A stretch of DNA of 64,000 nucleotides from Nemertoderma westbladi (Eukaryota > Animalia > Xenacoelomorpha). Where the stretch lies: contig JAUCBJ010001802.1 in the NCBI GenBank assembly GCA_032718475.1, positions 67,433 through 131,432 on the forward strand, in the 5' to 3' direction. Position numbers and translations under genes: made by a program. Shown here in pieces: positions 1,158 through 58,736 of the stretch (within the stretch, counting starts at the first letter, position 1; each line of letters begins with the position of its first letter). Below the pieces are notes generated by a model. The model ran no database searches, had not been told where the DNA came from, and worked only from the letters and a program-made list of their open reading frames with translations.

Positions 1158-4100
1158 CCCCATATTCGCTAGTCCTTGCCATTGTCCTGGTACTCTCTGT
1201 TCGCCATATTCGCTCCTCCTTGCTGTTGTCCCGGTACTCTCCATTCGCTGTATTCGCTACTCCTTGCCGTTGTCCCGGTACTCTCCGTTCGTCATATTCA
1301 CTCCTCCTTGCCGTTGTCCCGGGTACTATCCATTTGCCGTATTCGCTCCTCCTTGCCATTATCCCGAGTACTCTCTGTTCGCCGTATTCGCTCCACCTTG
1401 CCATTGTCCCATGTACTTTCCGTTCATCATTTTCGCTACTCCTTGCCATTATCCCAGGTACTCTCCATTCGCTGTATTTGCTCCTCCTTGCCATTGTCCT
1501 GGTACTCATACTCTCCATTCGCCATATTCGCTCCTCCTTGCCATTGTCCCGGGTACTCTCCATTTACCGTATTCACTCCTCCTTGCCATTGTCCCGGGTA
1601 CTCTCCATTACTGTATTTGCTCCCCCTTGCCATTGTCCCGGTACTCTCAGTTCGCCATATTCGCACCTCCTTGCCGTTGTCCCGGTACTCTCCATTCGCC
1701 ATATTCGCCCTTCCTTGCCGTTGTCCCGGGTACTCTCCATTTGCCGTATTTGCTCCTCCTTGCCATTATCCCGAGTACTCTCTGTTCGCCATATTCGCTC
1801 CTCCTTGCCATTGTCCCAGGTACTCTCTGTTCATTGTTTTTGCTACTCCTTGCCATTATCCCGGGTACTCTCCATTCGCCGTATTTGCTCCTCCTTGCCA
1901 TTGTCCCGAGTATTCTCTAATTGCCGTATTCGCTCCTCCTTGCCGTTGTCCCGGTACTCTCAATTCGCCATATTCGCTCCTCCTTTCCGTTGTCCCGGGT
2001 ACTCTCCATTTGCCGTATTCGCTCCACCTTGCCATTATCCCGAGTACTCTCTGTTTGCCGTATTCGCTCCTCCTTGCCATTGTCCCAGGTACTTTCCGTT
2101 CATCGTTTTCGATACTCCTTGCCATTATCCCAGGTACTCTCCATTCGCTGTATTTGCTCCTCCTTGCCATTGTCCTGGTACTCATACTCTCCGTTCGCCA
2201 TATTTGCTCATCCTTGCAATTGTCCCGGGTACTCTCCATTTGCCGTATTCGCTCCTCCTTGCTGTTGTCCCAGTACTCTCCATTCACTGTATTCGCTCCT
2301 CCTTGCCATTGTCCCGGTACTCTCTATTCGCCATATTCGCTCCTCCTTGCCGTTGTCCCAGGTACTCTCCATTTGCTGTATTCGCTCATCCTGGCCATTA
2401 TCCTGAGTACTCTCTGATTGCCGTATTCGCTCCTCCTTGCCATTGTCTCAGGTACTCTTCGTTCATCGTTTTCGCTACTCCTTGCCATTATACCGGGTAC
2501 TCTCCATTCACTGTATTTGCTCCTCATTGCCGTTGTCCCGGTACTCTCAGTTTGCCATATTCGCTCCTCCTTGCCGTTGTCCCGGTACTCTCCATTCGCC
2601 GCATTTGCTCCTTCTTGCCATTAACCCGGGTACTCTCCATTTGCCGTATTCGCTCCTCTTTGCCATTATCCCGAGTACTCTCTGTTCGCCGTATTTGCTC
2701 CTCCTTGCCATTGTCCCAGGTACTCTCTGTACATCGTTTTCGCTACTCCTTGCCATTATCCCGGGTACTCTCCATTCACCGTATTTGCTCCTCCTTGCTG
2801 TTGTCCTGAGTATTCTCCATTCACCATATTCGCTCCTCCTTGCCATTGTCCCAGGTACTCTCCATTTGCCGTATTCACTCCTCCTTGCTGTTGTCCCGGT
2901 ACTCTCCATTCCCCATATTCGCTCCTCCTTGCCGTTGTCCCGGTACTCTCCGTTCGCCATATTTGCTCCTCCTTGCCATTGTCCTGGTTACTCTCCATTT
3001 GCCGTATTTGCTCTTCCTTGCCATTGTCCCGGGTACTCTCCATGCGCCGTATTTGCTCCTTCTTGCCATTAACTCGGGTACTCTCCATTCTCCATATTCG
3101 CTAGTCCTTGCTGTTGTCCCGGGTAATCTCCATTCGCTATATGAGCTCCTTCTTACCATTATCCCGGGTACTCTCTGTTTGCCGTATTCGCTCCTTCTTG
3201 CGATGGTCCCGTGCACTCTCCGCTCCATTCGCCGTATTCGCTAGTCCTTGCTTGCTGTTGTCCCGGGAACTCTCAATTTGCAGTATTCCATATTCGCTCC
3301 ACCTTGCCATTGCCCCAGGTACTTTCTGTTAGCCGTAATCACTCCACCTTGCCATTGTCCTGGGTACTCTCCATTCGCTGTATTCGCTCGTCCTTGCCGT
3401 TGTCCCGGGTACTCTCCTTACGCCGTATTCGTTCCTTCTTGCCATTGTCCCGGCTACTCTCCATTAGCCGTATTTGCTCCTCGTTGCCGTTGTCCCGGTA
3501 CTCTCCATTCGCCATATTCGCTCTTCCTTGCCGTTGTCACGGGTACTCTTCATTTGCCGCATTCACTCCTCCTTGCCATTATCCCAAGTACTCTCTGTTT
3601 GCCATATTCACTCCTCCTTGCCATTGTCCCAGGTACTCTCTGTTCATCGTTTTTGCTACTCCTTGCCATTATCCGGGTACTCTCCATTCCCCATATTTGC
3701 TCCTCCTTGCCATTGTCCCAGGTACTCTCCATTTGCCATATTCGCTCCTCCTTGCCATTGTCCCGGGTACTCTCCATTTGCCATATTCGCTCCTCCTTGC
3801 CATTGTCCCAGGTACTCTCCATTTGCCGTATTCACTCCTCCTTGCTGTTGTCCCGGTACTCTCCATTCGCCATATTCGCTCCTCCTTGCCGTTGTCCCGG
3901 TACTCTCCGTTCGCCATATTTGCTCCTCCTTGCCATTGTCCTGGTTACTCTCCATTTGCCGTATTTGCTCTTCCTTGCCATTGTCCCGGGTACTCTCCAT
4001 GCGCCGTATTTGCTCCTTCTTGCCATTAACTCGGGTACTCTCCATTCTCCATATTCGCTAGTCCTTGCTGTTGTCCCGGGTAATCTCCATTCGCTATATG

Positions 4101-5961
4101 AGCTCCTTCTTACCATTATCCCGGGTACTCTCTGTTTGCCGTATTCGCTCCTTCTTGCGATGGTCCCGTGCACTCTCCGCTCCATTCGCCGTATTCGCTA
4201 GTCCTTGCTTGCTGTTGTCCCGGGAACTCTCAATTTGCAGTATTCCATATTCGCTCCACCTTGCCATTGCCCCAGGTACTTTCTGTTAGCCGTAATCACT
4301 CCACCTTGCCATTGTCCTGGGTACTCTCCATTCGCTGTATTCGCTCGTCCTTGCCGTTGTCCCGGGTACTCTCCTTACGCCGTATTTGTTCCTTCTTGCC
4401 ATTGTCCCGGCTACTCTCCATTAGCCGTATTTGCTCCTCGTTGCCGTTGTCCCGGTACTCTCCATTCGCCATATTCGCTCTTCCTTGCCGTTGTCACGGG
4501 TACTCTTCATTTGCCGCATTCACTCCTCCTTGCCATTATCCCAAGTACTCTCTGTTTGCCATATTCACTCCTCCTTGCCATTGTCCCAGGTACTCTCTGT
4601 TCATCGTTTTTGCTACTCCTTGCCATTATCCGGGTACTCTCCATTCCCCATATTTGCTCCTCCTTGCCATTGTCCCAGGTACTCTCCATTTGCCATATTC
4701 GCTCCTCCTTGCCATTGTCCCGGGTACTCTCCATTTGCCATATTCGCTCCTCCTTGCCATTGTCCCGGTACTCTCCGTTCGCCATATTCGCTCCTCCTAG
4801 CCATTGTCTCGGGTACTCCCCATTTGCCGTATTCGCTCCTCCTTGCCGTTGTCCCGGGTACTCTCCATGCGCCGTATTTGCTCCTTCTTGCCATTAATCC
4901 AGGTACTCTCCATTTGCCGTATTCGCTCCTCCTTGCCATTATCCCAAGTACTCTCTGTTCGCCATATTCGCTCCTCCTTGCCATTGTCCCAGGTACTCTC
5001 TGTACATCGTTTTCGCTACTCCTTGCCATTATCCCGGGTACTCTCCATTCACCATATTTGCTCCTCCTTGCTGTTATCCTGAGTATTCTCCATTCGCCGT
5101 ATTCGCTCCTCCTTGCCATTGTCCCAGGTACTCTCCATTTGCCGTATTCACTCCTCCTTGCCATTGTCCTGATTCTCTCCATTCTCCATATTCGCTCCTC
5201 CTTGCCGTTGTCCCGGTACTCTCCGTTCGCCATATTCGCTCCTCCTTGCCATTGTCCTGGTTACTCTCTATTTGCCGTATTCGCTCCTCCTTGCCATTGT
5301 CCCGGGTACTCTCGATGCGCCGTATTTGCTCCTTCTTGCCATTAACTCGGGTACTCTCCATTCGCCGTATTCGCTAGTCCTTGCTGTTGTCCCGGGTAAT
5401 CTCCATTCGCTATATGAGCTCCTTCTTACCATTATCCCGGGTACTCTCCATTTGCCGTATTAACTCCTTCTTGCGATGGTCCCGTGCACTCTCCGCTCCA
5501 TTCGCCGTATTCGCTAGTCCTTGCTTGCTGTTGTCCCGGGAACTCTCAATTTGCAGTATTCCATATTCGCTCCTCCTTGCCATTGTCCTGGTACTCTCCA
5601 TTCGCTGTATTCGCTCCTCCTTGCCGTTGTCCCGGGTACTCTCCTTACGCCGTATTTGTTCCTTCTTGCCATTGTCCCGGGTACTCTCCATTCGCCATAT
5701 TTGCTCCTTCTTGCCGTTGTCCTGGGCACTCTCCATTCGCCGTATTCGCTACTTCTTGCCATTGTCCCAGGGACTCTCCATTCGCTGTATTCACTCCTCC
5801 TTGCCATTGTGCTGGGTACTCTCCTTGCGCCGTATTTGTTCCTTCTTGTCATTGTCTCGGGTACTCTCCATTCGCCGTATTTGCTCCTTATTTCCATTGT
5901 CCTGGGCACTCTCTGTTCGCCGTATTCGCTAGTTCTTGCAGTTGTCCCGAGTACTCTCCGT
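1158..5961. repeat. 45-bp (44-45) pyrimidine-rich minisatellite array, ~4.8 kb, with higher-order duplications
   Basis: Unit approx CTCCTCCTTGCCATTGTCCCGGGTACTCTCCATTCGCCGTATTCG; 15-aa periodicity in the ORF track; identical ORFs at 3108 and 4065 show a 957-bp block duplication. Confidence 0.97.
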
Positions 5962-9851: not shown

Positions 9852-11381
9852 GGTGTTCCCCCTGAGGTCTTTAAAATACCTGAGTGTTTAAAGCTCATCT
9901 ATCCCATCATAGTAGACATGTACCGAACAACAAGAGTCCCACAAGAAATGAAAACAAATAAGTTGGTGCCAGTTCCCAAGAAGGGCAACCTAACACTCTA
10001 TGGTTCTTTTCGGGGAATCTCATTGATCTCGATTGCTGCAAAGCTATACAATAGGATTCTATTAAATCGCATCAGGGATCCCATTGAGAGACTGCTCCGT
10101 GGAAATCAGAATGGGTTCCGTAAAGGTCGTGGTACCATGGAGCCCATTCTGGCACTTAGAAGGATAATTGAAGAATTATCAAAAAAGAAAGACAGGCATC
10201 TGGCTGTTATCTTTGTTGACTTCTTCAAGGCCTTTGATTCAGTCTCTCGCTCACGTATGTTCTGTTCAGCATACTTTCATTATATGGGATTCCTGATGAA
10301 ATTATTGCAGCAATAAGATCAGTATACGATGGTTCGACAACATTTGTGTCTACTGTTGACGGTGACACAGAACCATTTGAAGTGTTATGGGGCGTCCTCC
10401 AAGGAGACACACTTGCACCATTCTTGTTCATTATTGTGGTTGACTATGTTCTACGCATGTCCTTAGATCATCATAATGATGATGGGGTGATGATAACTCC
10501 ACCTACTGGCTCCAGAAGTCGAGGAAATCCTGCCAAGTACCTAACTGATCTAGACTTTGCTGATGACTTAGGAGTACTCTCAGAATCACTAGAGGGAGCC
10601 CAACGGCTCCTCAGCTCATTAGAACATGCTGCTTCTAGTGTTGGTCTTTTTATTAACTCCAGAAAGACCAAAATTTTGACAGTTAACTTTGAAAGTCCTC
10701 AGCAAGTCTCTGATCGGATGAGCATAAGCTCAAAGGATGGTATGCTTGAGCATGTGGACGACTTCTGTTACCTGGGATCATGGATCCGGAAGTCAGGTGA
10801 GGACCTTCGAATACGTAAGGGCAAGGCATGGGCAGCCTTGAATAGGCTTTCCAGGATTTGGAAGTCACCGAGAATTAATCGGAAACTTAAGGTCCGATTA
10901 TTTAGAGCAGCAGTAGTTCCAGTACTCCTCTACGGGAGTCCATGCTGGGCTCTAACTGCTGAGGACACCAAATCTCTGGATGGCACATTCACAAGAATGC
11001 TACGCCGGGTTCATTGTGTCAAGTACAATGCACACATCTCCAACCAGACACTATATAACATTGGAGGTGTCTCATTGGTTCCCCCAAGCTTGACACTAGA
11101 ACAAAATCGCCTCCGCTTTGCAGGACATTGCTTTCGCCGTGAGGACCAGCCAGTGCATAATCTTGTACTTTGGCAGCCTCATGGAGTGAATAAGCATGGT
11201 GGACAGCCCATGACTTTCTTGAGACGCATCTTAAAGGACACTGGCCTTGAAGATGCGGATGATCTAGCAAATGTCATGGGTGATAGGGAGTTGTGGCGGT
11301 GCAATTTTATTGACAAGCCGGCACAGCATTCTTAAAAATGCAGCTGCAATGCAGCATGCCGATCCTAGGTGTAGTAGTAGT
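9852..11381 (+). mobile_element. 5'-truncated RTE-clade non-LTR retrotransposon (RT domain, one frameshift)
   Basis: PVPKKGNL..FRGISL, NQNGFRKGR, FVDFFKAFDSV, GVLQGDTLAPFLF, LDFADD, YLGS motifs; (GTA)n tail; TSD AGTATGGTTTGGAAT at 9837-9851 and 11382-11396. Confidence 0.93.
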
Positions 11382-11555
11382 AGTATGGTTTGGAATAATG
11401 ACAAGAAAAAAATATTGTTATAGTACTGGTAATCATTTTTACCGGTACTTTAAGCACCATTTTCGTATACCATTGTCTGCCATTCATGTCATACCTAGTG
11501 ACGGTGTCCTAGAAGGCACGATACGGAACCGACCTTTTATTTCATAAAAGAACAG

Positions 11556-13942
11556 TGTAAAAGCTTTTGTGGGATATAACTGGCCCTTTTGCTTCGCAAT
11601 CCAGTTTCCCTCAATGCGCTCAAATACTCTAAAGAAAAACTCCCTAACTCAAATGATGCAAGCTACCGGCTGATTGGCTGATTTGCTGTACGTATGGCCT
11701 CTTTGTTCTGTTCGATCAACCAACCAGAGCAAGGTCAACCAAGCAGAGTGATTCATCCTGTGTGTTGGCTAAGGGCTGCAAAAATCCGAATAGTTCGGCA
11801 TTTAGACATTCGTGGAATCTGTGGAATATGGAACTCTGCCAATGAGAGCTTTTCCTCTTTGTGTTGAAAGCTTGCAACAGCTCACAGGGTTCAGTGTGTT
11901 GGTTTTCCTGATGCCATGAACATCAGCTATGGAATTATTCTGTTTTATTCCAACATTAGAACGGCTTTAATTATGAGAACACATAACTGTTACCGGTACG
12001 GTACGGTACGGTACGGTACGGTACGGTACGGTACGGTACGGTACGGTACGGTACGGTACGGTACGGTACGGTACGGTACGGTACGGTACGGTACGGTACG
12101 GTACGGTACGGTACGGTACGGTACGGTACGGTACGGTACGGTACGGTACGGTACGGTACGGTACGGTACGGTACGGTACGGTACGGTACGGTACGGTACG
12201 GTACGGTACGGTACGGTACGGTACGGTACGGTACGGTACGGTACGGTACGGTACGGTACGGTACGGTACGGTACGGTACGGTACGGTACGGTACGGTACG
12301 GTACGGTACGGTACGGTACGGTACGGTACGGTACGGTACGGTACGGTACGGTACGGTACGGTACGGTACGGTACGGTACGGTACGGTACGGTACGGTACG
12401 GTACGGTACGGTACGGTACGGTACGGTACGGTACGGTACGGTACGGTACGGTACGGTACGGTACGGTACGGTACGGTACGGTACGGTACGGTACGGTACG
12501 GTACGGTACGGTACGGTACGGTACGGTACGGTACGGTACGGTACGGTACGGTACGGTACGGTACGGTACGGTACGGTACGGTACGGTACGGTACGGTACG
12601 GTACGGTTCGGTACGGTACGGTACGGTACGGTACGGTACGGTACGGTACGGTACGGTACGGTACGGTACGGTACGGTACGGTACGGTACGGTACGGTACG
12701 GTACGGTACGGTACGGTACGGTACGGTAAGGTACGGTACGGTACGGTACGGTACGGTACGGTACGGTACGGTACGGTACGGTACGGTACGGTACGGTACG
12801 GTACGGTACGGTACGGTACGGTACGGTACGGTACGGTACGGTACGGTACGGTACGGTACGGTACGGTACGGTACGGTACGGTACGGTACGGTACGGTACG
12901 GTACGGTACGGTACGGTACGGTACGGTACGGTACGGTACGGTACGGTACGGTACGGTACGGTACGGTACGGTACGGTACGGTACGGTACGGTACGGTACG
13001 GTACGGTACGGTACGGTACGGTACGGTACGGTACGGTACGGTACGGTACGGTACGGTACGGTACGGTACGGTACGGTACGGTACGGTACGGTACGGTACG
13101 GTACGGTACGGTACGGTACGGTACGGTACGGTACGGTACGGTACGGTACGGTACGGTACGGTACGGTACGGTTCGGTACGGTACGGTACGGTACGGTACG
13201 GTACGGTTCGGTACGGTACGGTACGGTACGGTACGGTACGGTACCTACTGCTGTATTGCACATTATTTACTGCTATTTACTGTTTGTTATTAATTGTATC
13301 AGTTGTTTACATATTGTTATTTGGAGAATAACGATAAATGATCAGAAACCCTGATCTTCTTGATACACTAAGGTTAGAGAGACCGGTTACATATAGCAAT
13401 TGCGACTTATATTATCGTGGTTTGTAGTGAATTGAATGCTATTTTATAGGCCCTACAAATGTCGGTTGCTATTCTCTTTATATATGATTAAAATCAGTGA
13501 CTATCGGCAATTCAGTGTGCAGCGGTGTGCAATAGTCTGTATGTGCTTGTCCGCGTAACAAAGCATCTCCTAAAGAATGCGCCTTATGTGTAACTTATAA
13601 TCCATTCCGTTGTGTTTAGTGTAAGCCATAGCTCTGTTTATATAGATAGAGCGCCACGTCCTAAAGGAACTGCTAATATTTCCCGAAAGTGAATGATATT
13701 TGTCAGGAATTATATTAACGATCAATCGAATAGTACGGTAGGCCTGCACCGCAATCAAATTAAAGCATCCGAATCCAGTCTCCCGGGTATATCCAGCGGG
13801 TGAATGGTCGCGCATAGACTGGCTTCGGCTAATGTTGGATTTATTTGTGTCAAATACTTGTCATAGGCTAAAGTCGATTTATAACCTAGAAGACATATAG
13901 ATTTGGCGGGTTAAACTGCCAAAGGTCTTAAAAGCGCGAACA
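11556..13942 (+). repeat. 5' LTR of element A (2387 bp, enlarged by microsatellite)
   Basis: Matches 22929-24093 except for roughly ten small differences and the GTACG array. Confidence 0.95.
11994..13244. repeat. (GTACG)n pentanucleotide microsatellite, ~250 units
   Basis: Near-perfect array with four single-base interruptions. Confidence 0.99.
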
Positions 13943-13953
13943 GTAACAGTTAT
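13943..13953 (+). promoter_or_regulatory. Non-tRNA primer-binding site of element A, complementary to its own LTR
   Basis: GTAACAGTTAT is the exact reverse complement of ATAACTGTTAC at 11983-11993 (and 23359-23369). Confidence 0.75.
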
Positions 13954-14292
13954 TAATTCTGATTGCAGTGTAGGCAATAAATACAGTTTACTATTGTTCT
14001 GGTAAGAACAATAACAGTTATTGCTTCTTTATTGCCGTAAGCAATAAAGCTGAAGTACCGGTCGACCGGTAACCTGTAGGCCTAACTACCTAACCACCGG
14101 AACCGGTACTTACAGCAGTATACTGGTATAGGTACATCAGTATTATTTCGATTGTGATATATTGTATATTGTAGGCTGTTAGGGGATTAGGGATTGATCA
14201 CCCCTTATTCCTTTGCATGGTTTACTTATTTCTGTCAGTTTTATTTACTAGTAGGCTAATATTGAGCAGAAGACGTGTAAGCCTGCTCAGAT

Positions 14293-14866
14293 CGTACAGA
14301 TAATTTGTAGGCTGGGCTGTTGTCTGACTGTTGATAGGTCTGAACGGATTGCAGTGCATGTAGAGTGTATGTCCGATAAAGTGCCGGTTAGGAACGTAGG
14401 GGCAGCTAGAGCTGTAAGGTAACCCCCCCCCCCCCCCCCCCGAAAGAATAAGTCGTACTACTAGGTTAGAACGCATACTAACTAACCATTTCGGAGTCTG
14501 CATGTCCTGTAGTTTATTTAGGCTTGATAGTAGTCTGCCAGCGTTTGGTCTGTACTTTGTTTGTGTAGTCTGTACAGGTACCGTAATATTTCTTATTCAG
14601 ATAATTTATAGGCTAGATTGTTGTCTGGCTGTTGTTAGGTCTGAAGAGATTGTGGTGTGTGTAGAGTGTATGTCCGATAAAGTGCCGGTTAGGAAAGTAG
14701 GGGCATCTAGAGCTGTAAGGTAAATCCCCCCCCGAAAGAATAAGTCGTACTACTCGGTTAGAACGCATACTAACTAACCATTTCGGAGTCTGCACATACT
14801 GTAGTTTATTTAGGCTTGATAGTAGTCTGCCAGCGTTTGGTTTGTATTTTGTTTGAGTAGTTTGTA
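14293..14866 (+). ncRNA. Two tandem ~290-nt rod-like structured RNA domains in the leader of element A
   Basis: Arms pair over ~65 bp with many G-U pairs; compensatory changes versus the element B copies. Confidence 0.65.
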
Positions 14867-16223
14867 CGGGTAGCGTAATATTTATTATTCAGAGTTTATG
14901 CGATTATTCGCAACATTCATAACCCCAAGTTTATTCCCACAGTAATTGTGCTTGTTATACATACCGTTATAGTTAAATTAACCCCGGTACTACATAAGGG
15001 CTGCTTGGCGTAGGTAAAGACTGGTGATTTTGTGCCCCGGTCACTCCAGCAGATGCCGTGGTTCCTTTAGCTGTACAAGTATTTCTAACTGCTAGTTATT
15101 TGTTGTACAAGTACTTGTACCTAATTTAGGGTTTAGTGTACAGTGCTTTCCGAAGGTAATTAGTGTGTAGGCAGTATATTTGTGTTGTAAAGTGGTTAAT
15201 AGGCATGTTGGCTCTGGTAGGCCGCGGTAATTAACTTCCAGGTAGGGACACTCCGTGATACATAACGTAGTACTTATAGCGATACGGCTATAAGTCGTCA
15301 GACGGTGGTATTTTTCCTATCTGGACAACGCAATATATTTACTACTGGTTTATTATTTTCAAATACCGTAATATCCTGTCTGTTGTAATAACCAGATTTT
15401 CTAACCCTTTGTTAGGCTGTTTTGTAGATTCCCTGTAAAATTACCCTAAAAATTCATATTTGTAATTTTTGTGTTTATTTAGAGATGGTAATCTCACCCC
15501 GAATTGTACGTAATTTGTAGTATTAAGTAACTTAGGTAAATTAGAATTATTTGTTTTAGTGTCCAACAAGTAGCACTTCACTGAGAGCGCACAGCTTCTG
15601 TGTAGTGACTCCTCCCCAGAAATAATAACATTTATTTCAAATATTGACAAAACCCATTAAAACGGGTATATATATTATAAATCAACTCAAACGATTTATA
15701 AATAGTAGGCCTGCCATACAACAACTAGGTCTCAATATCAGTTGGACTACTGCTCAAATAACGGTAATAAAGTAAGTTAAAGTAACCAAGTAACCCCTAA
15801 AATTCAGAAATACAATTATTCTAAAATAATTGACATACCGGTATTTACAATAGGCTTATTATATTTATTTCTATAAATTTAGGCTGCAATTATACCGGTA
15901 TTCTGTAATTAATTCTAGTTCATAATTATACTTATATATACTATAAGTGTAAGCTGTATACCGGTATTCACGATAGGCCTATTATATATTTATATATATT
16001 TGTGCTAAAATTATATACCGGTATTCTGTGACAAACATAGTCTGTAATAATACTTATATATATATATACTATAAGTATACCGGTATTCTGATACATTGTA
16101 TATATATCACGTTACACTGAGTAACGGTATCGGTAATTAATTACTAGGCTAACAGTTGATACTGAATTACTAGACTTTCTTTAACTGTAATATAGCAGTA
16201 GGCATTCAACTGTACAATCAAAT

Positions 16224-18559
16224 ATGTCTGGCACAAAACGGGCACTGTCAGATAGTCTTTTGGAAGGTGTTAGAATGAGTCTTCGACTTGGACAGCGTCT
16301 TGAAAGGATGGAAGACAGAAAAGCAGCAGCAGTGGCAGCGGCAGAAGCGGAAAGAAAAGCGGCAGAGGCGGTGGCAGAAGCAGAACGGAAGGCGTCTGAA
16401 GCGACTGCCCAACTAGAGCTGGAGAGCCTTCGGGCGAGACAGGGATTTGCCTCCTCCGATGAAGGTGATATAAGAGATCCCGAAAGTAGAGGTAATAAAT
16501 CTCGTTCAAGCAGGCGTAGAAGAATGCCACACTGTCCGAAGTTACCTAATTTGCCTCCTGCGGTGAGACTAGCTAGCACAGACTTAGGTAGTACAGAACC
16601 CACAGACCAAATTATTACAGTAGAAAGACTCCCTACTATAGTAGATGAGCCTGAAATAATTAGGCCTGTTCTCGAAGCCACCCCTTCGGTGATAGAGACA
16701 CCTGTACTCCCAGGACCTACCTCTAAATTCCCTTTGCACAGCACAAAACTACCTGTGCCCAGTAGGACTGTTCCCGAGTCCGAACCCATCCTGGACGCCG
16801 AGCGAGATATCAAGAATTTATCGCCCGTCGTCTCTCGCTTGCCCGCTACTACGTTGGCGACTCCCGCTTCGGCGGTCGAGTGGGTAGCTGAGGGACGACG
16901 GGAGATGGGTCTCCTGCTCGGGCAGCTGAGGGAACATTGTAAATGTTCCTCCCAGCAGGTCCGGGAGTTGGAAGGGACTGTTCAGCAGTTAAAGGGAGCA
17001 GTAAGAGAGGGTAGGTTAGCATTGCAAGAAGTGCAGCAGAATATCGCGTCAGAATGCGATAAGTTAGTAAATTTACAAAAGGGTATACCACCACCCTCTG
17101 TAACAATGTGTCAACCTGTTAGGTCTGAAGTATTTCATGCGCAAGGTGTGGAGCCTACACGCATATATACTGCTAGTGAAGTAGAAACTCCTATAGTAAA
17201 CCCTATTAAGGGTAATTATAAACCTGTTGACAGTGATATTCCATATAGACTTGATAATAATCCGAGAAATTTATATACCGATAACTCGATATTAAATAAT
17301 ACGATGGCCCAAGAAAGTTTTACGCGTCAAATGGCTAGAACCGAAGCCCGTCAAGCGGTAAAGATGGGAGAGATCGTCAAGTTCAATGGAGATGAGATGA
17401 AATGGTTACCTTTTAATGAATATTACAAAGATAACATACAGAACTCTGTGTTATCTAACGGAGAAAAGCTTAGATTCCTCATCGAGTGCTTGGAAGGATC
17501 TCCCAAGTTAATGGCGTTAAAGTTTATTGGACATCCAGATGGATTAAGACAAGTTTGGGATACATTAAACATCAGGTATGGTAATAGGAATAACATAGCT
17601 AGGTATTTGTATGCAAAATTAATGGCGCCCCGAAAGTTTCTTAGCAGCGGGATAATAGAGTTTTCCGATGAGATTCAAGAGATCTGTAGACAATTAGATT
17701 GGTTAGGTAAGTCTCGTGAATACCAGAATTCTATGGTTGTAGGAGCCTTAGCATCAACTCTGCCAAAGGGTGGAGTAGGTACACGCTGGGACAAGAAAGT
17801 GTTATATATGATGGAACAACAACGACGAGACCCTACCATGGCTGATCTCATGTCATTCTTGGATGGAGAGGTAAAATTACAGCTCCTAAAGCAGTCCCGA
17901 GAGAAGACCCTGGAGAACAAGGTGAGTGAAAAACCCGTTTCTAGGAGAAAAATAATACCAGTGTGTTATACCGACGAGGGCGAAAGCCAGGCTTCTCAAG
18001 AAGAAGACAGCGGGAAAGACACTGAAAGATCTTACTATGACAATAAAACCCTAAAGGACGTAAGTAAATTCAAGTCTCGAACCAATGACAGGAGAGAACA
18101 GGTAAGAAAAACTCCTCCTACGTCTCCTAAGAGAATTAATGTAAGAAATCCCGAGGAAAGAACGAGCGTGCACCACACAGCACATGTTAAAGTAAGTAAC
18201 ATCAAGCCCAAATGTGTGTTGTGCGACGGGCCCACCGTTTAAATGTGTGTAATGAATTCCTAAAGAAATCATTAAAGGATAAACGTGAAGTCATGTGGGA
18301 TAAGCGGTTGTGTTATAATTGTCTCAGACGAGGACACCAACGGCGAACCTGTTACTCCGACGCAAGGTGTGCGAAGTGCGGCGCGAAACATCATATTTTG
18401 TTGCACACCGAATTCGAAAGAAACAGCCCGAGTCAGGTAAGTGAGTCCGAACTACATGTCCAATTCAGTGATGTGAACGACACTGACCAAAGTTCTGAGA
18501 TGGAAGGATTCTATACTATACGGACGAATTCTCAGACGAAAACGAATCCTGTTACTTAA
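16224..18559 (+). pseudogene. Bel/Pao gag of element A (frameshift near 18230)
   Basis: Coiled-coil N-terminus; KFNGDEMKWLPF..LSNGEKLRFLIECLEG (DUF1759-like); CVLCDG-AHRLNVC, CYNCLRRGHQRRTC, CAKCGAKHHILLH knuckles. Confidence 0.9.
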
Positions 18560-18570
18560 TAAATACCGCA

Positions 18571-19648
18571 GTGTATCGAGCACTTACGTATGAGAAGGAA
18601 ACCGACAGTGAGCTCCCCCTAACTACTTCTGATCGACAACCATCTTGGAAAGCGCCAACTTCCAATGTAGGAATCCGAGAATTTCCTGTAGTACAGTTAA
18701 GGGTCCACGGACCTAAAAGGAGTTATATAGTGAACGCCCTCCTTGACTCCGGTAGCACAGGAACATTCATCGACAAAGAACTAGCCGAAGACATCTTTGC
18801 TGGACAACCCAAGTTCCGAACTAAGCTAAACATGTCAGGAATTATGCAGGTTTGGAAATCTACCGTAATAGCGGATTATTATGTAGGCGCGTTGTCCACC
18901 CCCCAGGATGAACTAGGAGAACACAGCATAAGGTCAGTAAAAATGGTAAAAATGGTAGCACTTGGCTACCAGCCAAGTGGAACCTTATAACTGGGATGAG
19001 GACGATTTCACCCAGCAGCTTGAAATACCTAGATTCAACACCGATTACCCTGGAGTCCAAATACTAATCGGTCAAAATGCGCATGAAGCGCTCGAGACAT
19101 TGGAGAAACGGCCTGCTCAACCGCAACCACTACAAGCCTATGCGGGAAGAACTAGAGTGGGTTGGTACTTTACTGGCCCTTCCCGTAGAACTCTCATGGA
19201 AAGATTACCGAAAGATCAGGTATATCAAGTAAGAGAATGGGAAGATGAGAGCAGTGAGTTAGACGATCCAACTAAGGGAAGACCATACTCCTCAGATAAT
19301 GACGACATCAACTCCAATGTAGATCAATGGAGACATTGCCCCGAGACGATTAATCTAGCCGACATTGCCTCCAGTGGAGCAACTCCTCAAGAACTGACAG
19401 ATACTCCAGACTGGTTAGGTGAACCCGACTTCCTAAGTAAAGAAGATGAATGGCCTCCCCACCTTAACCCGGCTGAGATTAGACAGGCCAAGGGAGCAGA
19501 GAAAGTAACACAACCACTCAATCGCCCAGCTGGTCGTTTATGTTTACTGGAAAGAGACCGAAAACTGTCCGGAAACTATGGAAGGCAAGATACTCTTCCC
19601 ACGATCACCTCCCTAATCCAACAAATATCTAGGGACTCCATAACGTAA
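18571..19648 (+). pseudogene. Pao aspartic protease plus fused remnants of the pol C-terminus
   Basis: VNALLDSGSTGTFI; ILIGQN..RTRVGWYFTGP; QWRHCPETINLADIASSG..WLGEPDFL (end of RNase H region); RPAGRLCLLE (integrase tail); no RT or DDE core between them. Confidence 0.85.
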
Positions 19649-21305
19649 CAACATACGGAGTGGGTGTGTGACTATATTATTTTATATTTATTTTATTATT
19701 TTATATTATGTATGTATTATTATGTAATTTTATTATAATCGTTTTCTTTAATTTTATTTAGTCAAATGTTATTTAGCGATTATTTAGTAGATTAGTGCAA
19801 TATATTAGTGTTTATTACTTAATTACTTATATATTATATTTAGTGCGACGGCGAGAAATAATTCTTTTTCTCTTTCCTTACTGTCCGTATCATATTATAA
19901 ATACAATATTATTTTTTATTATTATATATACAATATAAATAAATATAAAATTATGTAAGATGAAATATCCGTACTTATTAAAGTACAATAAAGCTCCTAC
20001 TATATTCAAGTATTATTGGTAGGCAGAGTATTAGGAATGCAAAGTTCAGATCCTCGTGTCTCGGCTAAACCAAGCTCTGGGTAGACCTTGGAAACGACTT
20101 GCCTCTTCTCACTGACATTGCTTCGTGCGATATTGCTCTCATACCGTATATTGAATAATACATATAGTAGCGTGATGTCCCTTTAACAGTAGCGTAAAAC
20201 GCAAAATAAATCTGTTAAACCCTTTGACCATCTGCAATTCTAGTCGATTAAGATATCGCGGCACCCACCGATATACTTGAAAGACAAAATTCTAGAATCA
20301 GTGGTTAACGTCCCCAGACAAGTTCTGGAATAAACTGGTGCCCATCCTAAATATTAATTATTAATATTTACAAAATCTGTCAAATTTCAGATCCTTTAAA
20401 ATTCTAGTCGATTAAGATATCGTAGCACTTACCGATACTCTTAAAAGGACAAATCCCTAGAATCAAGGATCCCAGTCCCCAGACTTGTTCTGGAATAAAA
20501 TTGTGTCTATTTAATATTAAATAATAAAATTACGGGAATAAATTTAAATTCATCTTTTAATGAATTTGATAAATTGTTATTTTATACAATTTATAATATT
20601 CCCAAAATTCCATTAATTAATAGATCATGGGAGCGGAGATTCACCTATTAAGTGTATTAGTGTGCGAGAATCTCCAATATAGAGTCAATAGCCGATAAAA
20701 TTCATAAAATCATATATAAAGATGATATTGACCATTAAAGACTTACTATTAAATAGCATCCCAGATCTGTATGCATGGGAATTACCCTAATTCTACCGCT
20801 AGCTTTCCATAATGTCACCATAGCAACAACCACGCTAGAATTAGAAGCGAGTTAACAGAACAATAAAAAGCTTGCTCATTGAATAGCATACGGAATAAAT
20901 AACACACCGCTAGTATCCAAGGATACATAATAACAACGTGACATTCTGGAAGGCACTTGACTAACGGACAAATGACCCGAATGTGTGATAGAATGTGTAC
21001 CATTTGTGACAGTTACGTGGAATTTGTGCGTTTGTAGATGAATGTTACTACTAAGGTGTGTTTACAGTAGCGAGTCGCAATTGTGAAAGTAGCCCTAACT
21101 CTCCAGTAAGAACCTGAAGTATATCTAAGCCTTTGGGACGGACGGTGGAGTGACTCGTGCTGGTTGTTGTAGTCGTTGTGCAGCTACGACGTTGGCGATA
21201 GGCACATCGGCGAAAGTACACCAGCGCTGAGGATCTCGCACTGTCCGGGGGCAGAGAGGGGTAGGCAGCGACGCCCGCTCGCCTAAATATAAACTCATTA
21301 TAATA

Positions 21306-22850
21306 TGGATAAACTTATATAGCAGATATGATTGAGTTGATAGAAGATGATCTTGGTATCAGGGAGCGATATACTCTACCTTTACAAGCGTTTGTTGATA
21401 GCTTGATACGCGGCGACGCTGGTCCAACTACTACGGAGGACGATGGTCGTTATATCGAACCGCCAATGTCCCAGGAACAACTTACGCGTGAATTGGACTA
21501 TAGAAAATTCACCGCTCGCTATACGCATCGTAATGGTACGTATATGGACTTCTTAACTACTGGTCATCCTATCGACCTACACGATACGAACGATATAGAC
21601 ACCGAAAGGGAAATGGTTTTATTTAAATATCATACCCAGCGGAAGCGGAACGATAAACTGAGATTCGAACACGAAAATTCTATTCGAAACCGACTCGAAA
21701 GTGAAGATGTTGAAGAGCCGGATAAACGCAGCGACTTCAACAGAATATCTGGAATTCTTGAGAGAAACATATCTCAATATTACCAGTCAACAGAATCTAG
21801 AAACTCGATATCTTCAAGGTATACATCATGACCGCATGGTAGAACTCAAACGGCTCTATTCCACTATGATGTATCTTACCGCTGATCGACCGCTACCTGT
21901 TGCACCGGATAGCTTCGAACAGATGGAGGAATATTGTAAACTGGAGAAAGATCACTCGCGTTTCCCCTACAAGACGTGCGTCTTTGGTATTATTGCGATG
22001 AATGCCCTAGACCCAACCAACAAACGGAAAGACCTAAACATCCGCGGAGACGTTGCATTAAACACGGTTTTACTCGCTATATTTACGGGAGTTTCGAGCG
22101 AAACTTGTTCGATGTATCACCTACGCTCGCTCGATTCAAACGATCCTTAAATAAACCTATGATCCGAGTTCCGGAATACTCGATCAGACCTCCTCACTCC
22201 CTAGTGAGAACCCAGACTCTTGATCCTAATAGTATCATGGATCCTCCCGAGCTGTACTCACTGTTCAAAGATCTAGTGCTACCCGAACAGTTAGTCGGTG
22301 GCACTCTGATTGTGGGCTCCCTAAATATTCGCCCATCTTACCTAGTCGGATTGGGACGCGGACATCTAATATCGTCATTCAACCGTATCATCGTCCCTGT
22401 TTAACCCGATACAACCTGTCACTGAGGCGGAGGAGAGAGTTGTACGAGACGCGTTGGACACTATTCGTCAAAAGATCGGAAAATGAACCTACAATTGTTT
22501 AGAGAAACGTAAATTGCGGCAGCAAGTCCAAGCGGTAAACGAATTAACTTTATCTCAGTTCGATCAAGAAATCCAGAATCTCTAAGAAGATATCGAACTT
22601 GGACGACCCTATTCTCTGCGAGAGTTTTTGGATGAACGTATCCAGCTACGAGCGGAGGAAAATCAGCTCGAGGAGAACATATCGAAACGGCGGATACCCC
22701 GACCATAATCCTACACCTTCTGATGCAATCATATTGCACCCTTCACCCAGGAGTTATAGCCCTCCTAGTAAAGTGGCTCCCCCCAAAGAGAAAAGGACTC
22801 TTGCTAGCTTTAAAAAACTGCGTAAACGCCGTCCACGCAAGAAAGACTAA
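21306..22850 (+). pseudogene. Decayed ~500-aa accessory ORF of unknown function inside element A
   Basis: Overlapping + ORFs 21328-21831, 21701-22150, 21976-22404, then a coiled-coil-like frame with two stops and a basic C-terminus (KKLRKRRPRKKD). Confidence 0.55.
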
Positions 22851-22928
22851 CTGTTTAGAGTATTTTTATATTTTAGAAACTGTGATTTTTTATATTTTAT
22901 AGAATTAAATCCCATTTTCTGGGAGCGG

Positions 22929-24093
22929 TGTAAAAGCTTTTGTGGGATATAACTGGCCCTTTTGCTTCGCAATCCAGTTTCCCTCAATGCGCTCAAATAC
23001 TCTAAAGAAAAACTCCCTAACTCAAATGATGCAAGCTACCGGCTGATTGGCTGATTTGCTGTACGTATGGCCTCTTTGTTCTGTTCGATCAACCAACCAG
23101 AGCAAGGTCAACCAAGCAGAGTGATTCATCCTGTGTGTTGGCTAAGGGCTGCAAAAATCCGAATAGTTCGGCATTTAGACATTCGTGGAATCTGTGGAAT
23201 ATGGAACTCTGCCAATGAGAGCTTTTCCTCTTTGTGTTGAAAGCTACCTGCAACAGCTCACAGGGTTCAGTGTGTTGGTTTTCCTGATGCCATGAACATC
23301 GGCTATGGAATTATTCTGTTTTATTCCAACATTAGAACGGCTTTAATTATAAGAACACATAACTGTTACCGGCACGGTACGGTACGGTACGGTACCTACT
23401 GCTGTATGGCACATTATTTACTGCTATTTACTGTTTGTTATTAATTGTATCAGTTGTTTACATATTGTTATTTGGAGAATAACGATAAACGATCAGAAAC
23501 CCCGATCTTCTTGATACACTAAGGTTAGAGAGACCGGTTACATATAGCAATTGCGACTTATATTATCGTGGTTTGTAGTGAATTGAATGCTATTTTATAG
23601 GCCCTACAAATGTCGGTTGCTATTCTCTTTATATATGATTAAAATCAGTGACTATCGGCAATTCAGTGTGCAGCGGTGTGCAATAGTCTGTATGTGCTTG
23701 TCCGCGTAACAAAGCATCTCCTAAAGAATGCGCCTTATGTGTAACTTATAATCCATTCCGTTGTGTTTAGTGTAAGCCATAGCTCTGTTTATGTAGATAG
23801 AGCGCCACGTCCTAAAGGAACTGCTAATATTTCCCGAAAGTGAATGATATTTGTCAGGAATTATATTAACGATCAATCGAATAGTACGGTAGGCCTGCAC
23901 CGCAATCAAATTAAAGCATCCGAATCCAGTCTCCCGGGTATATCCAGCGGGTGAATGGTCGCGCATAGACTGGCTTCGGCTAATGTTGGATTTATTTGTG
24001 TCAAATACTTGTCATAGGCTAAAGTCGATTTATAACCTAGAAGACATATAGATTTGGCGGGTTAAACTGCCAAAGGTCTTAAAGGCGCGAACA
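22929..24093 (+). repeat. 3' LTR of element A (1165 bp)
   Basis: TGTAAAAGC..GCGCGAACA followed by TSD AACAG. Confidence 0.95.
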
Positions 24094-24166
24094 AACAGTA
24101 TCGCCACTGTATGGCCTTTCTCCATTATTGCCATCACAACTCTACCACGCGGCAATATTGCCAATC

Positions 24167-24997
24167 GGTGTTCGGACACTTCCCCCCCCGAACACTTCCC
24201 CCCCGGACACTTCCCCCGGACACTTCCCCCCCCAGACACTTCCCCCCCGGACACTTCCCCCCCGAGCGTCGACCTGTATTATGTGTTCAGCATTACATAT
24301 TGATATACATATTGCTATACATACTATAGAGATATTATACACACTACATATTAAATTTCCTGGTTACTTGCAATATTTTTAATAGGATTTTATTGAATTA
24401 TATAATATTAGTAATTTATATATTAATTTGGTTAACATTCAATACAGCTCCTACTTTAGGCTTAGTCAATTTATTATCTGATGATACAAACATAATTGAT
24501 TATTTCAAAACGGTCTCAAAGTCTTTCACCACGGGCACACAGGGAATGCCGGGGTTTGGGGGCGGTAGCCCCCAAGAAAAGAAGCGGGGGTTTGGAGGCG
24601 GCAGCCCCCATGAAAAGAAGCGGGGGTTTGGGGGCGGCAGCCCCCAAGAAAAGAACCAGGTGTTTGGGGGCGGCAGCCCCCAACAAAAGGAGCGGGGGTT
24701 TGGGGGCGGCAACCCCCAATTAAAAGAAAAACAAACAATATTTGACTATAAAAATGTTTCTTTTATAATTTTGAAAAAACTTGTCTAGGTGCAACTTGTC
24801 CTGTAACCATCTTTAACTTTTGTTTATTGCTTTGATGCACCCAGATTAATTTTAACACTTTAATTGGGGGGGAAGTGTCAGGGGGGCAAGTGTCCGGAGG
24901 GAAGTGTCCGGGGGGGAAGTGTTCTACTTGGGCGGGGGGGGGGGGGAGTGTCCGGGGGGGGAACTGTCCGGGGGGGGGGGGGGAGTGTTCTAGATCC
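24167..24997. mobile_element. Mutator-like MITE with subterminal GGACACTTCCCCCC repeats
   Basis: 9-bp TSD TTGCCAATC on both sides; inverted subterminal arrays; internal 36-bp GGGGTTTGGGGGCGGCAGCCCC repeat x5. Confidence 0.8.
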
Positions 24998-29388: not shown

Positions 29389-32300
29389 GGATATGGGAAG
29401 TGGTGTAAAACGCGGATTCAAGTTAATTATCAAGTTTTAATAGATCCGGGAATGTGTGTAAAACGCGGATTGAAATTAATTACAAAGTGTTACTGGATCC
29501 GGGAATGGGTGTAAAACGCGGATTCAATTTGATTACCAAGTTTTAATGGATCCGGGAAGGGGTGTAAAACGCGGATGCAAGTTAATTACCAAGTTTTATT
29601 GGATCCAGGGAGGGGTATAAACTGTGGATTGAAGTTAATTATCCAAGTTTTAATGGATCCGGGAATGTGTGTAAAACGCGGATTGAAATTAATTACAAAG
29701 TGTTGCTGGATCCGGGAAGGGGTGTAAAACGCGGTTTCAAGTTAATTACCAAGGTTTAATGGATCCGTGAAGGGGTATAAAACGCGGATTGAAGTTACAG
29801 TAATTACCAAGTTTTAATGGATCCGGGAAGGGGTGTAAAACGAGGATTCAATTTGATTACAAAGTGTTACTGGATCCGGGAAGGGGTGTAAAACGCGGTT
29901 TCAAGTTAATTACCAAGGTTTAATGGATCCGTGAAGGGGTGTAAAACGAGGATTCAATTTGATTACAAAGTGTTACTGGATCCGGGAAGGGGTGTAAAAC
30001 GCGGATTCAATTTGATTACCAAGTTTTAATGGACCCGGGAAGGGGTGTAAAACGCGGATGCAAGTTAATTACCAAGTTTTATTGGATCCAGGGAGGGGTA
30101 TAAACTGTGGATTGAAGTTAATTATCCAAGTTTTAATGGATCCGGGAATGTGTGTAAAACGCGGATTGAAATTAATTACAAAGTGTTGCTGGATCCGGGA
30201 AGGGGTGTAAAACGCGGATTCAATTTGATTACCAAGTTTTATTGGATCCGTGAAGGGGTATAAAACGCGGATTGAAGTTACAGTAATTACCAAGTTTTAA
30301 TTGATCCGGGAAGGGGTGTAAAACGAGGATTCAATTTGATTATCAAGTGTTACTGGATCTGGGAAGTGGTGTAAAACGCGAATTCAGGTTAATTACAAAG
30401 TGTTACTGGGTTCAGGAAGGGGTGTAAAACGCGGATTCATTTTATTTACAAAGTGTTACTGGATCCTGGAAGGGGTGTAATACGCGGATTCAATTTGATT
30501 ACCAAGGTTTAATGGATCCGAGAAAGGGTGTAAAACGCGGATTCAATTTGATTACCAAGTTTTAATGGACCCGGGAAGGGGTGTAAAACGCGGATTCAAT
30601 TTGATAATGCAGAAACACTTTGAAATTAACTTGAATCCACGTTTTACACCCCTTCCCGGATCCAATAAAACTTGGTAATTAAATTGAATCCGCGTATTAC
30701 ACCCCTTCCAGGATCCAGTAACACTTTGTAAATAAAATGAATCCGCGTTTTACACCCCTTCCTGAACCCAGTAACACTTTGTAATTAACCTGAATTCGCG
30801 TTTTACACCACTTCCCAGATCCAGTAACACTTGGTAATTAACTTGAATCCATTTTTTACACCCCTTCCCGGATCCAGTAATACTTTGTAATTAACATGAA
30901 TCCGCGTATTACAACCCTTCCCGGATCCAGTAACACTTTGAAATTAACTTGAATCCACGTTTTACACCCCTTCCCGGATCCAATAAAACTTGGTAATACA
31001 TTGAATCCGCGTATTACACCCCTTCCAGGATCCAGTAACACTTTGTAAATAAAATGAATCCGCGTTTTACACCCCTTCCTGAACCCAGTAACACTTTGTA
31101 ATTAACCTGAATTCGCGTTTTACACCACTTCCCAGATCCAGTAACACTTGGTAATTAACTTGAATCCATTTTTTACACCCCTTCCCGGATCCAGTAACAC
31201 TTTGTAAATAAATTGAATCCACGTTTTACACCCCTTCCAGGATCCAATAAAACTTGGTAATTAACTTGAATCCGCGTTTTACACCCCTTCCCGGACCCAG
31301 TAACACTTGGTAATTAAATTGAATATGCGTTTCACATACTTCCCGGATCCATTAAAACTTGGTAATTAACTTGAATCCGTGTTTTACACCCTTCCCGGAT
31401 CCAGTAACACTTTGTAAATAAATTGAATCCGTGTTTTACACCCCTTCCCGGATCCAGTAACACTTTGTAAATAAATTGAATCCACGTTTTACACCCCTTC
31501 CCAGATCCAATAATACTTGGTAATTAACTTGAATCCGTGTTTTACACCCATTCCTGGATCCAGTAACACTTGGTAATTAACTTGAATATGCGTTTCACAC
31601 TTCCCAGATCCATTAAAACTTGGTAATTAATTTGAATCCGTGTTTTACACCCCTTCCCGGATCCAGTAACACTTTGTAAATAAATTGAATCCGCGTTTTA
31701 CACCCCTTCCTGGATCCAATAAAACTTGGTAATTAACTTGAACCCGCATTTTACACCCCTTCCCGGATCCAGTAACACTTGGTAATTAACTTGAAAACGC
31801 GTTTCACACTTCCCGGATCCATTAAAACTTGCTAATTAACTTGAATCCGTGTTTTACACCCCTTCCCGCATCAAGTACAGTAACACTTTGTAAATAAATT
31901 GAATCCGTGTTTTATACACCCTTTCCCGGATCCAGTAACACTTTGTAAATAAATTGAATCCGCGTTTTACACCCCGTCCCGGATCCAGTAACACTTTGTA
32001 AATAAATTGAATCCGTGTTTTACACCCTTTCCCGGATCCAGTAACACTTTGTAAATAAATTGAATCCGCGTTTTACACCCCGTCCCGGATCCAGTAACAC
32101 TTTGTAAATAAATTGAATCCACGTTTTACACCCCTTCCAGGATCCAATAAAACTTGGTAATTAACTTGAATCCGCGTTTTACACCCCTTCCCGGATCCAG
32201 TAACACTTGGTAATTAAATTGAATATGCGTTTCACATACTTCCCGGATCCATTAAAACTTGGTAATTAACTTGAATCCGTGTTTTACACCCTTCCCGGAT

Positions 32301-32488
32301 CCAGTAACACTTTGTAAATAAATTGAATCCGCGTTTTACACCCCTTCCCGGATCCAGTAACACTTTGTAAATAAATTGAATCCGTGTTTCACACCCGGTC
32401 CCGGATCCAGTAACACTTTGTAAATAAATTGAATCCACGTTTTACACCCCTTCCCGGATCCAGTAACACTTTGTAAATAAATTGAATC
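29389..32488. repeat. 53-bp minisatellite in two oppositely oriented blocks
   Basis: Unit GGATCCGGGAAGGGGTGTAAAACGCGGATTCAATTTGATTACCAAGTTTTAAT forward to ~30605, reverse complement from ~30614. Confidence 0.96.
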
Positions 32489-32719
32489 ATAAAATTAAAT
32501 AAATAAAAATAAAATAAATTGAATTACTTTGCAGAGTCACCCTATAGCCCGCAACGCTGCGAAGTGGTACTGTACCTTGCAGCGTTACGTGTAATTCATC
32601 AGAACGCTGATAAGTTGACATAATGTAACAAAAACAATTAACTTCTTGAAGTTACTTTTTGTCTTGTACTAAATACTTGTACAGTGCTTTATAATGAAAC
32701 TTTAACACAGGATACTAAC

Positions 32720-33575
32720 TTAGAATTATAAATTTTGCTTCATCATATGGTATTCCTTTGACTTTAGCGTGCTCCAGTAGAAACACGTTTGGGACAAGTA
32801 ATCCCAACATTGCAACCGCAGAACTAAACGCAATAAGAACAAAAGTCTGACTGTGCATGACTTTGGTGGCGTTCTGGAATGCTTTGTAAAAATGGCCCAG
32901 TGCATCCCCAGTGCACGAGCACGTAAAAAGTGTTTCGGATTTTCTATTTCCATCGTTCGTAAATCGAACCGGTATTTCAAAGTCATATTCATCTTGTTTT
33001 TGGCTGTCACAATCATAGCGAATGGCATTGCAGATGTCTCTGTAGTCTCCACCTGATATATAATACTCAATTTCGGAAGTTGCGCTCTCTTCATCATTAT
33101 CTGCTTTTGGTAGTTTGGAATACTCTTCTTTTGGCAACTCTAACGCAACTCCCCCCTCATCAGTGTGTACTACATATCCCACACTCTTCCGCCTGATTTT
33201 TGATTTATTTGGAAGGGAGCTTCCAATATTTGGATCTGGAAGTCTTTTGTAGGGTTTAGAGCCCCTTACAGCTCTATGCGAAGCGGGTGGATTATTTGGG
33301 AAGGCTTTGGAAGAGTCTGTTGCTGCTTTATTGGTCTTAGGTAGTATGTCTCTCTCTGCATATCTAAGGGGTACATCCTTGCCGTTGTCCGTGTGAGCAT
33401 GCTTTTTATCCTCATTAGGTTCGTCTGTTTTGTTTTTTGGAAAAGATTTCTTAGACTGCCGCTTTTTACCAAATTCATTATCTTCCCCTTGCTTCAATTT
33501 GGCATTAAATGTATTGAACCACAAACCACAAATCGAACAATTTAGAATCATAGCGGAACAAATTAAAAATGTGCC
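32720..33575 (-). CDS. SLC16/MCT-like transporter, exon 4 (TM6, large central loop, TM7)
   Basis: TTTTACAG|GGC acceptor, A|GTTAGT donor, 856 bp, phase 0-1; GTFLICSAMILNCSICG..FVLIAFSSAVAMLGLLVPNVFL. Confidence 0.9.
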
Positions 33576-45422: not shown

Positions 45423-45528
45423 GCACAAAATAATTCAGGTGTAAACTCGTTTAATATAATGTGAAACGAACCTTTATATCAGGTTATTTGGTTTCACCAC
45501 GAAATATTTATGGCGAAACATTCGTTTC

Positions 45529-58500: not shown

Positions 58501-58724
58501 TATATAATACTGTCAGTCGAATAATACATTAGGCTTACATAGCAATAAAATTAAACCGTCGAACCCAATCTCCCGGGAATATCCAGCGGGTGAATGATCG
58601 CGCACAGATTGGTTTCGACTAGTGTAGTGAATCAAATATTTGTCATAGGCTAAAAAGCGATTTAATATCTAGAAGACATCCTAATTTGGCGGGTTAAACT
58701 GCCAAAGGTCTGAAAGCGCGAACA

Positions 58725-58736
58725 TTAAAGGATATA
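58725..58736 (+). promoter_or_regulatory. Non-tRNA primer-binding site of element B, complementary to its own LTR
   Basis: TTAAAGGATATA is the exact reverse complement of TATATCCTTTAA at 57954-57965. Confidence 0.75.

Follow-up and report, generated by a model that had tools for sequence, protein, structure and literature searches.

Self-priming has been demonstrated for Tf1 and proposed for Tf1/sushi, Tcn1 and TAR/Houba, as described in the available portions of the sources (PMC6317226, PMC7175516, PMC4600332, bioRxiv 2022.12.06.519325, PMC3601003). In Tf1, RNase H cuts between bases 11 and 12 of the RNA, according to the available part of PMC7175516. The accessible text on Tf1, Tf2 and Tj1 and on the Tf1/sushi group describes about 11 nt after the 5' LTR that pair with the element's own LTR, and no tRNA site (PMC7175516, PMC4600332, bioRxiv 2022.12.06.519325), similar to the arrangement studied here. 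Tf1/sushi elements are Ty3/gypsy chromoviruses, whereas the proteins of the elements designated A and C below are of Bel/Pao type. The plant elements Tcn1 (gypsy) and TAR/Houba/Osr-1 (copia) are also alike in having a complement of at least 10 nt located 0-5 nt after the LTR, but they belong to other superfamilies and hosts, and no splice-built primer is described for them in the part of PMC6317226 available. These predicted plant lineages indicate that self-priming arose more than once.

Members of the Belpaoviridae, in contrast, are known to carry a PBS for host tRNA. The ICTV description gives an 18-nt PBS for tRNA-Arg or tRNA-Gly (PMC8742986), and the available parts of two further reports give a tRNA-Tyr site for Achilles (PMC4580426) and tRNA sites (PMC13524379). 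Five Bel/Pao surveys (PMC3118150, PMC554778, PMC6238403, PMC8556966, PMC8220671) hold no statement on self-priming in the portions available, supplements aside. A literature check for self-priming BEL elements, which the preliminary description of this DNA had proposed, found no published report in the texts accessible, Repbase, GyDB and subscription journals apart.

The window, that is the whole 64-kb stretch of DNA analysed, contains three LTR elements designated A, B and C. Element A spans 11556-24093 and is organised as follows.

11551-11555, repeated at 24094-24098, + strand: left target-site duplication of A, 5 bp (AACAG)
11556-13942, + strand: 5' LTR of A, TGT...ACA
11891-11895, + strand: TCAGT initiator-like motif, candidate start, 92 nt upstream of the anti-PBS of A; kept in C (57856)
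11983-11993, copy at 23359-23369, + strand: anti-PBS of A, ATAACTGTTAC, predicted 3' end of the self-primer, with the predicted cut after 11993
11994-13244, + strand: (CGGTA)x250 array in the 5' LTR, beginning exactly at the predicted cut
13759-13764 (23910 in the 3' LTR), + strand: ATTAAA, a candidate poly(A) signal located 184 nt ahead of the end of the LTR
13902-13923, + strand: 8-bp U5 hairpin near the LTR end, conserved in C; the hairpin at this place in B is another one, of 7 bp
13943-13953, + strand: PBS of A, directly following the terminal CA at 13942; no TGG; exact complement of 11983-11993
14006-14073, + strand: PBS-plus-leader unit repeated in tandem in diverged form; the PBS of this second copy (14011-14021) has a different letter at position 1
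16191-18242, + strand: Gag ORF with DUF1759 (E 1.4e-12)
18200-18987, + strand: frameshifted pieces of a zinc-knuckle array and of a DSG aspartyl protease
18959-19648, + strand: post-protease region fused directly to the C-terminal end of RNase H
21313-22850, + strand: broken extra ORF region ahead of the 3' LTR, with a Cys/His-rich stretch
22921-22928, + strand: purine-rich tract ahead of the 3' LTR
22929-24093, + strand: 3' LTR; CGGCAC follows its copy of the anti-PBS (23359-23369)

Elements C and B show the corresponding features.

57514-58724, + strand: 5' LTR of C, about 77% identical to that of A downstream of the anti-PBS
57954-57965, + strand: anti-PBS of C, 12 nt, at a position homologous to that of A
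58725-58736, + strand: PBS of C, a 12-nt match to 57954-57965
60868-64000, + strand: Gag of C, split by a small inverted-repeat insertion, with DUF1759 (E 2.8e-6) in the downstream piece
35200-35746, + strand: 5' LTR of B; 3' LTR at 39314-39855, 534/542 identical
35543-35552, + strand: anti-PBS of B, 10 nt, within a 6-7 bp hairpin stem (local fold z -3.5)
35747-35756, + strand: PBS of B, no TGG, a 10-nt match to 35543-35552

The preliminary description had noted that no TGG-starting PBS follows the LTR of A, that the 11 nt after it are an exact complement of a segment inside the LTR, and that B and C repeat the arrangement with different sequences. All of this holds at exactly the coordinates given above: none of the three elements has TGG in the 8 nt that follow its 5' LTR, and the pairing starts at offset 0 from the LTR end in each. 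The match was contained in only 10/20000 Markov-shuffled LTRs for A, 3/20000 for C and 14/20000 for B. Internal positions equalling the own-LTR match length amounted to 8/8940 in A, 0/5205 in C and 3/3520 in B, and the PBS of A, B or C compared with the LTRs of the other elements yielded matches of only 5-6 nt. The motif CG(G/-/T)CAC, also pointed out previously, directly follows the anti-PBS in the 3' LTR of A, in C and in B; in the 5' LTR of A it reads CGGTAC, which is the start of the (CGGTA)x250 array. No tRNA gene or Rfam match was found within the window.

The assignment of A to Bel/Pao rests on its proteins and termini. A Bel/Pao Gag with DUF1759 and a zinc-knuckle array, then an aspartyl protease, are present together with an RNase H remnant, TG..CA LTRs, a purine tract and the 5-bp target duplication, as in Belpaoviridae. 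At E 0.001 or better, the Gag has 216 relatives, and the 150 listed among them are 20-36% identical; DUF1759 was found in 21/21 Gag homologues scanned from these 150, and the Pao peptidase domain in 14/21. Against the Bel/Pao relative loci described below, the Gag is 20-29% identical. The knuckle and protease pieces are alignable with Bel/Pao homologues, and the RNase H C-terminal end is 41-47% identical over about 50 aa; word-indexed protein searches gave no match. The RT, most of the RNase H and the integrase are absent. Judged by its domains, A is therefore a non-autonomous derivative of Bel/Pao from which RT and integrase have been lost. Unlike known Belpaoviridae, which the ICTV describes with a host-tRNA PBS, A, B and C carry no tRNA site. 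The missing site sets them apart from the members known so far, and for A the protein evidence carries at least as much weight. Lacking an RT, A is absent from the RT tree described below, so that the clade seen there covers the relatives alone.

The purine-rich tract fixes the orientation of A. Excluding the microsatellite, its two LTRs share 436/438 and 693/698 aligned letters, and this near-identity indicates a young insertion. The LTRs, otherwise 99% identical, contain 250 CGGTA units on the 5' side and about 4 on the 3' side; the array is either a post-insertion expansion or an assembly artefact. The duplicated PBS-plus-leader unit is a 68-nt tandem repeat (13938-14073), and in contigs its second PBS type directly abuts the LTR end in other copies. 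Neither a Pfam match nor a homologue was found for the extra ORF region (21313-22850), which could be an accessory or envelope-like gene. Upstream of A lies a LINE-like RT fragment with DUF6451 (10238-11335), and just after A an element with C-rich/G-rich inverted ends and a 9-bp duplication (24167-24997), which we take to be Mutator-like. Elsewhere, the window contains an open frame of 336 codons with no Pfam match (32715-33725, - strand) and tandem arrays at 1163-5959 (45 bp), 29395-32488 (53 bp) and 43738-48006 (21/43 bp), of which the 53-bp and 21-bp arrays each flip orientation.

By its similarity to A, including the same Gag, C is a sister subfamily of A; it is cut off by the window end. 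The insertion in its gag (63349-63724) has 22-bp terminal inverted repeats and an apparent 3-bp duplication, and is presumably a Harbinger-like MITE. The LTR ends of B are set by a 5-bp target duplication (AAGTT). B showed no Pfam domain and no similarity to A, C, the fetched proteins or the fetched loci, and is thus left without a superfamily. Of the three elements, only A and C are thus demonstrated to be Bel/Pao.

Comparison of A and C provides a direct view of the pairing. Global alignment places both anti-PBS at the same position, each preceded by the conserved TTTAATTATAAG. The PBS of C differs from that of A at positions 1, 5, 6 and 8 (4/11), and the anti-PBS is changed at the same four positions, so that the pairs are restored. 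Under independent drift at 20-40% divergence, such matched changes have a probability of 4-9e-6. Variation within the family of C points the same way. Of seven sequencing runs, none recorded as RNA and all either contigs or uninformative, four were compared on C, two of them from one sample. After 57964, the contigs of 3/4 runs diverge from the C reference and carry T instead of A at 57965. The PBS variant predicted from this change, A at 58725, was found, unphased, in 3/4 runs, where it accounts for 27-43% of the summed depth (43, 42 and 21 contigs), coverage of the site being minimal in the fourth. The contigs contain a further PBS variant at 58729, also unphased.

Relatives were collected using an alignment of five Bel/Pao polyproteins, which yielded 78 metagenome loci from the best 80 of 408 confirmed stretches. 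A further 22 Bel/Pao loci (L079-L100) came from GTDB prokaryote assemblies and are most likely host DNA binned with microbes, including the one in a Wolbachia chromosome record (L096). An LTR pair was found in 45 of the 100 loci and a defined LTR end in 18, the other 27 being dropped for a contig that broke off within the 3' LTR or for ends not closing on CA. The 18 were chosen by likeness to the five polyproteins, which biases the sample to one clade, and several may share a host. Searching for self-complements of 10-15 nt at offsets 0-5 identified one in 15/18 Bel/Pao loci, compared with 8/416 mismatched pairs; collapsing two near-duplicate pairs gives 13/16. The three remaining loci have self-complements of only 8 nt (L042, L085) or 4 nt (L096), and L096, with no self-complement in the searched range, is the sole TGG locus among the 18. 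For 59 more loci without defined LTR ends, many matches of the same layout were seen and discounted, as the null itself reached 11-13 nt. Metagenome and viral contigs yielded no match to the LTR-end pattern of the family, and a search of the viral contigs confirmed no Bel/Pao relative.

In the 15 positive loci, the match is contiguous in 3 and runs across a GT..AG LTR intron in 12. Although the intron search demanded only GT[AG], GTCAG or GCAAG at the donor, the 12 donors are GTRAGT in 11 cases and GTAAGG in one. The sisters L081 and L082 have the exon end and the PBS altered together. L061 (split) and L080 (contiguous) have both flanks in common, as precise intron loss would give. A FastTree tree of the RT-RNase H region (L090 left out) united all included self-complementary loci in one large clade with L096 outside, and the split and contiguous forms were not grouped on it. 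The idea of self-priming in Bel/Pao is thus well supported at the sequence level by the four matched changes between A and C, by 15/18 independent Bel/Pao loci and by the predicted variant.

An alternative is that the PBS binds a host tRNA fragment or another small RNA and that the LTR match is incidental. Several relatives have a PBS start GTT(C/T)(G/A)A (L010, L025, L045, L052, L061, L080, L081; not A, B or C), which we take to resemble, in sense orientation, the T-loop of a tRNA or a Pol III B box. Priming by a half-tRNA is known in Ty1/copia, according to the available part of PMC6317226. The PBS, however, vary by element and each fits its own LTR only. Element-specific PBS together with the matched changes between A and C cannot be explained by a single host RNA, making a host-RNA primer very improbable.

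The anatomy of the site was compared in 16 elements (13 loci and A, B and C). The anti-PBS ends in AC in 13/16, followed by C in 11/16 and by CG in 8/16. An AC end followed by CG is found in A and B, and this boundary links them to the distant relatives; the anti-PBS of C ends in AA. A CG near the LTR end had been thought to pair with the CG following the anti-PBS, a proposal abandoned here as a general feature because such pairing has a mean rank of 0.49 against mismatched pairs in the 16 elements. The paired segment itself begins 0-4 nt from the LTR end in 18/18 positive elements, A, B and C included.

The TCAGT motif, previously placed about 90 nt ahead of the anti-PBS, was located at 11891. 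In both A and C, CCAAT lies upstream of it, the two motifs being 90-100 nt ahead of the anti-PBS, and C also has TATATA. The candidate poly(A) signal of A is downstream of the anti-PBS, AATAAA/ATTAAA is found at the matching place in C, and the canonical hexamers of the two elements lie 280-600 nt downstream of the anti-PBS. A hexamer downstream of the anti-PBS was present in 16/19 LTRs listed. R would therefore extend beyond the predicted cut, as strand transfer needs. An anti-PBS at the poly(A) site was set aside for these loci, as the hexamers are downstream.

Other signals were noted around these sites. C has acceptor-like TTTTCAG and TTTTTAG at 57900-57923, 31-38 nt ahead of the anti-PBS, which are missing in A; there is no GTRAG donor upstream of them, and an RNA starting there folds the duplex; trans-splicing is conceivable. 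A donor-like AAG|GT(A/T)AGA is kept in A (23521-23529) and C (58158-58166), about 160-200 nt past the anti-PBS, and may belong to an intron in R or to a subgenomic RNA. An intron splitting the anti-PBS of A or C was rejected, as the match is contiguous and neither LTR has an upstream GTRAG donor. For B, an 11-nt match obtained by splicing depended on a weak GC donor and was lost under a stricter rule.

Folding was evaluated at several levels, the 900-nt folds being computed without Gag and thus weak evidence in either direction. The core PBS/anti-PBS duplexes have only -10 to -12 kcal/mol. The duplex of C forms with a probability of 0.93-0.98 from starts within 35 nt of the anti-PBS and of 0-0.03 from farther up, including about 0 from the TCAGT start; that of B forms in cis in the whole-leader fold with 0.05-0.14. 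Pairing between the leader and the stretch ahead of the anti-PBS ranks 0.1 or better in 7/16 elements, B included (binomial p 5e-4), as expected if both are in the same RNA; in A (rank 0.82) and C (0.39) it is not better than in mismatched pairs. In Tf1 three duplexes form a 'pretzel', but its leader-U5 duplex was not found here: pairing of the leader with the last 45 nt of U5 reached rank 0.1 or better in 0/16 elements, with a mean of 0.62. A U5-end stem was seen in 4/16, and the U5 hairpins have weak z-scores (-1.8, -1.3 and -2.3).

The pairing might instead serve as a structural leader switch for packaging, dimerisation or poly(A) suppression, with another primer being used. In B the anti-PBS is in a hairpin loop, and stable hairpins flank the PBS as in regulatory leaders. 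The region 35505-35790 looks like a two-state switch, the anti-PBS lying in the hairpin while 35 nt upstream pair with the leader at -21 kcal/mol. Covariation, moreover, demonstrates pairing and not priming. Against a purely structural role stand the start of the segment next to the LTR end in all 18 positives, where a primer must sit, the lack of a TGG site in every one of them, and the conserved 3' end of the partner (AC|C), as a processing site would have. We consider the structural explanation improbable.

A further question is where the primer comes from, as the anti-PBS is present in both LTRs and could be supplied by the 3' LTR copy or by another transcript. The weak cis folding of B, and of C from the upstream start, is in line with such a source, as are the approximately 1950 nt between the pairing partners in the 5' LTR of A. 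The family of C is very abundant in sequencing-run contigs, so LTR transcripts could be plentiful, and since the intron of the relatives lies shortly before the poly(A) hexamer, terminal-intron splicing could act. However, a cut in the 3' copy would remove the downstream R overlap, the anti-PBS of A and C is away from the poly(A) site, and C folds readily in cis from nearby starts. The Tf1 precedent is also in cis, from the 5' end, in the available part of PMC7175516. A primer from the 3' copy or another transcript is thus unlikely, although less so than the structural switch.

The favoured reading is priming in cis from the 5' LTR. For A and C, minus-strand DNA probably starts from the element's own LTR RNA segment of 11-12 nt instead of a host tRNA. 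The transcript would start ahead of the anti-PBS, with the 5' part of R folding onto the PBS. Cleavage would then occur immediately 3' of the anti-PBS, the RNase H of the RT being the probable enzyme by analogy with Tf1, and the freed 5' fragment would be extended through U5. The overlap needed for the first strand transfer would come from R downstream of the cut, and all sequence ahead of the cut would have the 3' LTR as its template; an intron could accordingly survive in this upstream part and be lost once a spliced copy is used. In relatives with an LTR intron through the anti-PBS, splicing would build the primer end, and in A, C and B the anti-PBS would be ready-made, most simply as intron-less forms. 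A would need RT and integrase from an autonomous partner outside the window. The pairing and its conservation are observed, and start, cut, splicing and priming are what we infer from them.

The partner in A and C is apparently inside R, in contrast to the first 11 nt used by Tf1, and in the 12 split Bel/Pao relatives it exists only once the intron is removed, again unlike Tf1. A primer end inside R, mostly at AC|C, is the best reading. In the split relatives, 3-8 nt of the anti-PBS precede the intron, and as a first exon of this size seems unlikely, the primer would be longer than that of Tf1. The same suggestion in the preliminary description is thus plausible from the intron-bearing relatives, but its TCAGT start is only a candidate, from which the folding of C gives the duplex a probability of about 0. 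The promoter-like motifs and the intron-split primers speak for a start farther up, the folding of C for one nearby. Whether a large Bel/Pao lineage has replaced tRNA priming by a self-primer ending inside R and cut at AC|C, built by splicing in many members, with the intron-less A and C derived from a copied spliced form, is evenly balanced in our view; its origin would be independent, with an architecture unlike Tf1. The pairing is real and far above chance, and most likely reflects self-priming in Bel/Pao with an internal primer, intron-split in relatives; in the texts accessible, self-priming is described only in other retrotransposon families.

If the mechanism is true for a large part of Bel/Pao, self-priming would have evolved in each of the three superfamilies of LTR retrotransposons. 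Programs that require a tRNA PBS would miss such elements or place their ends wrongly. Retrotransposons are controlled by tRNA fragments that block the PBS, and self-priming elements would escape this control. In addition, the intron-split primers of the relatives would couple the onset of reverse transcription to splicing by the host.
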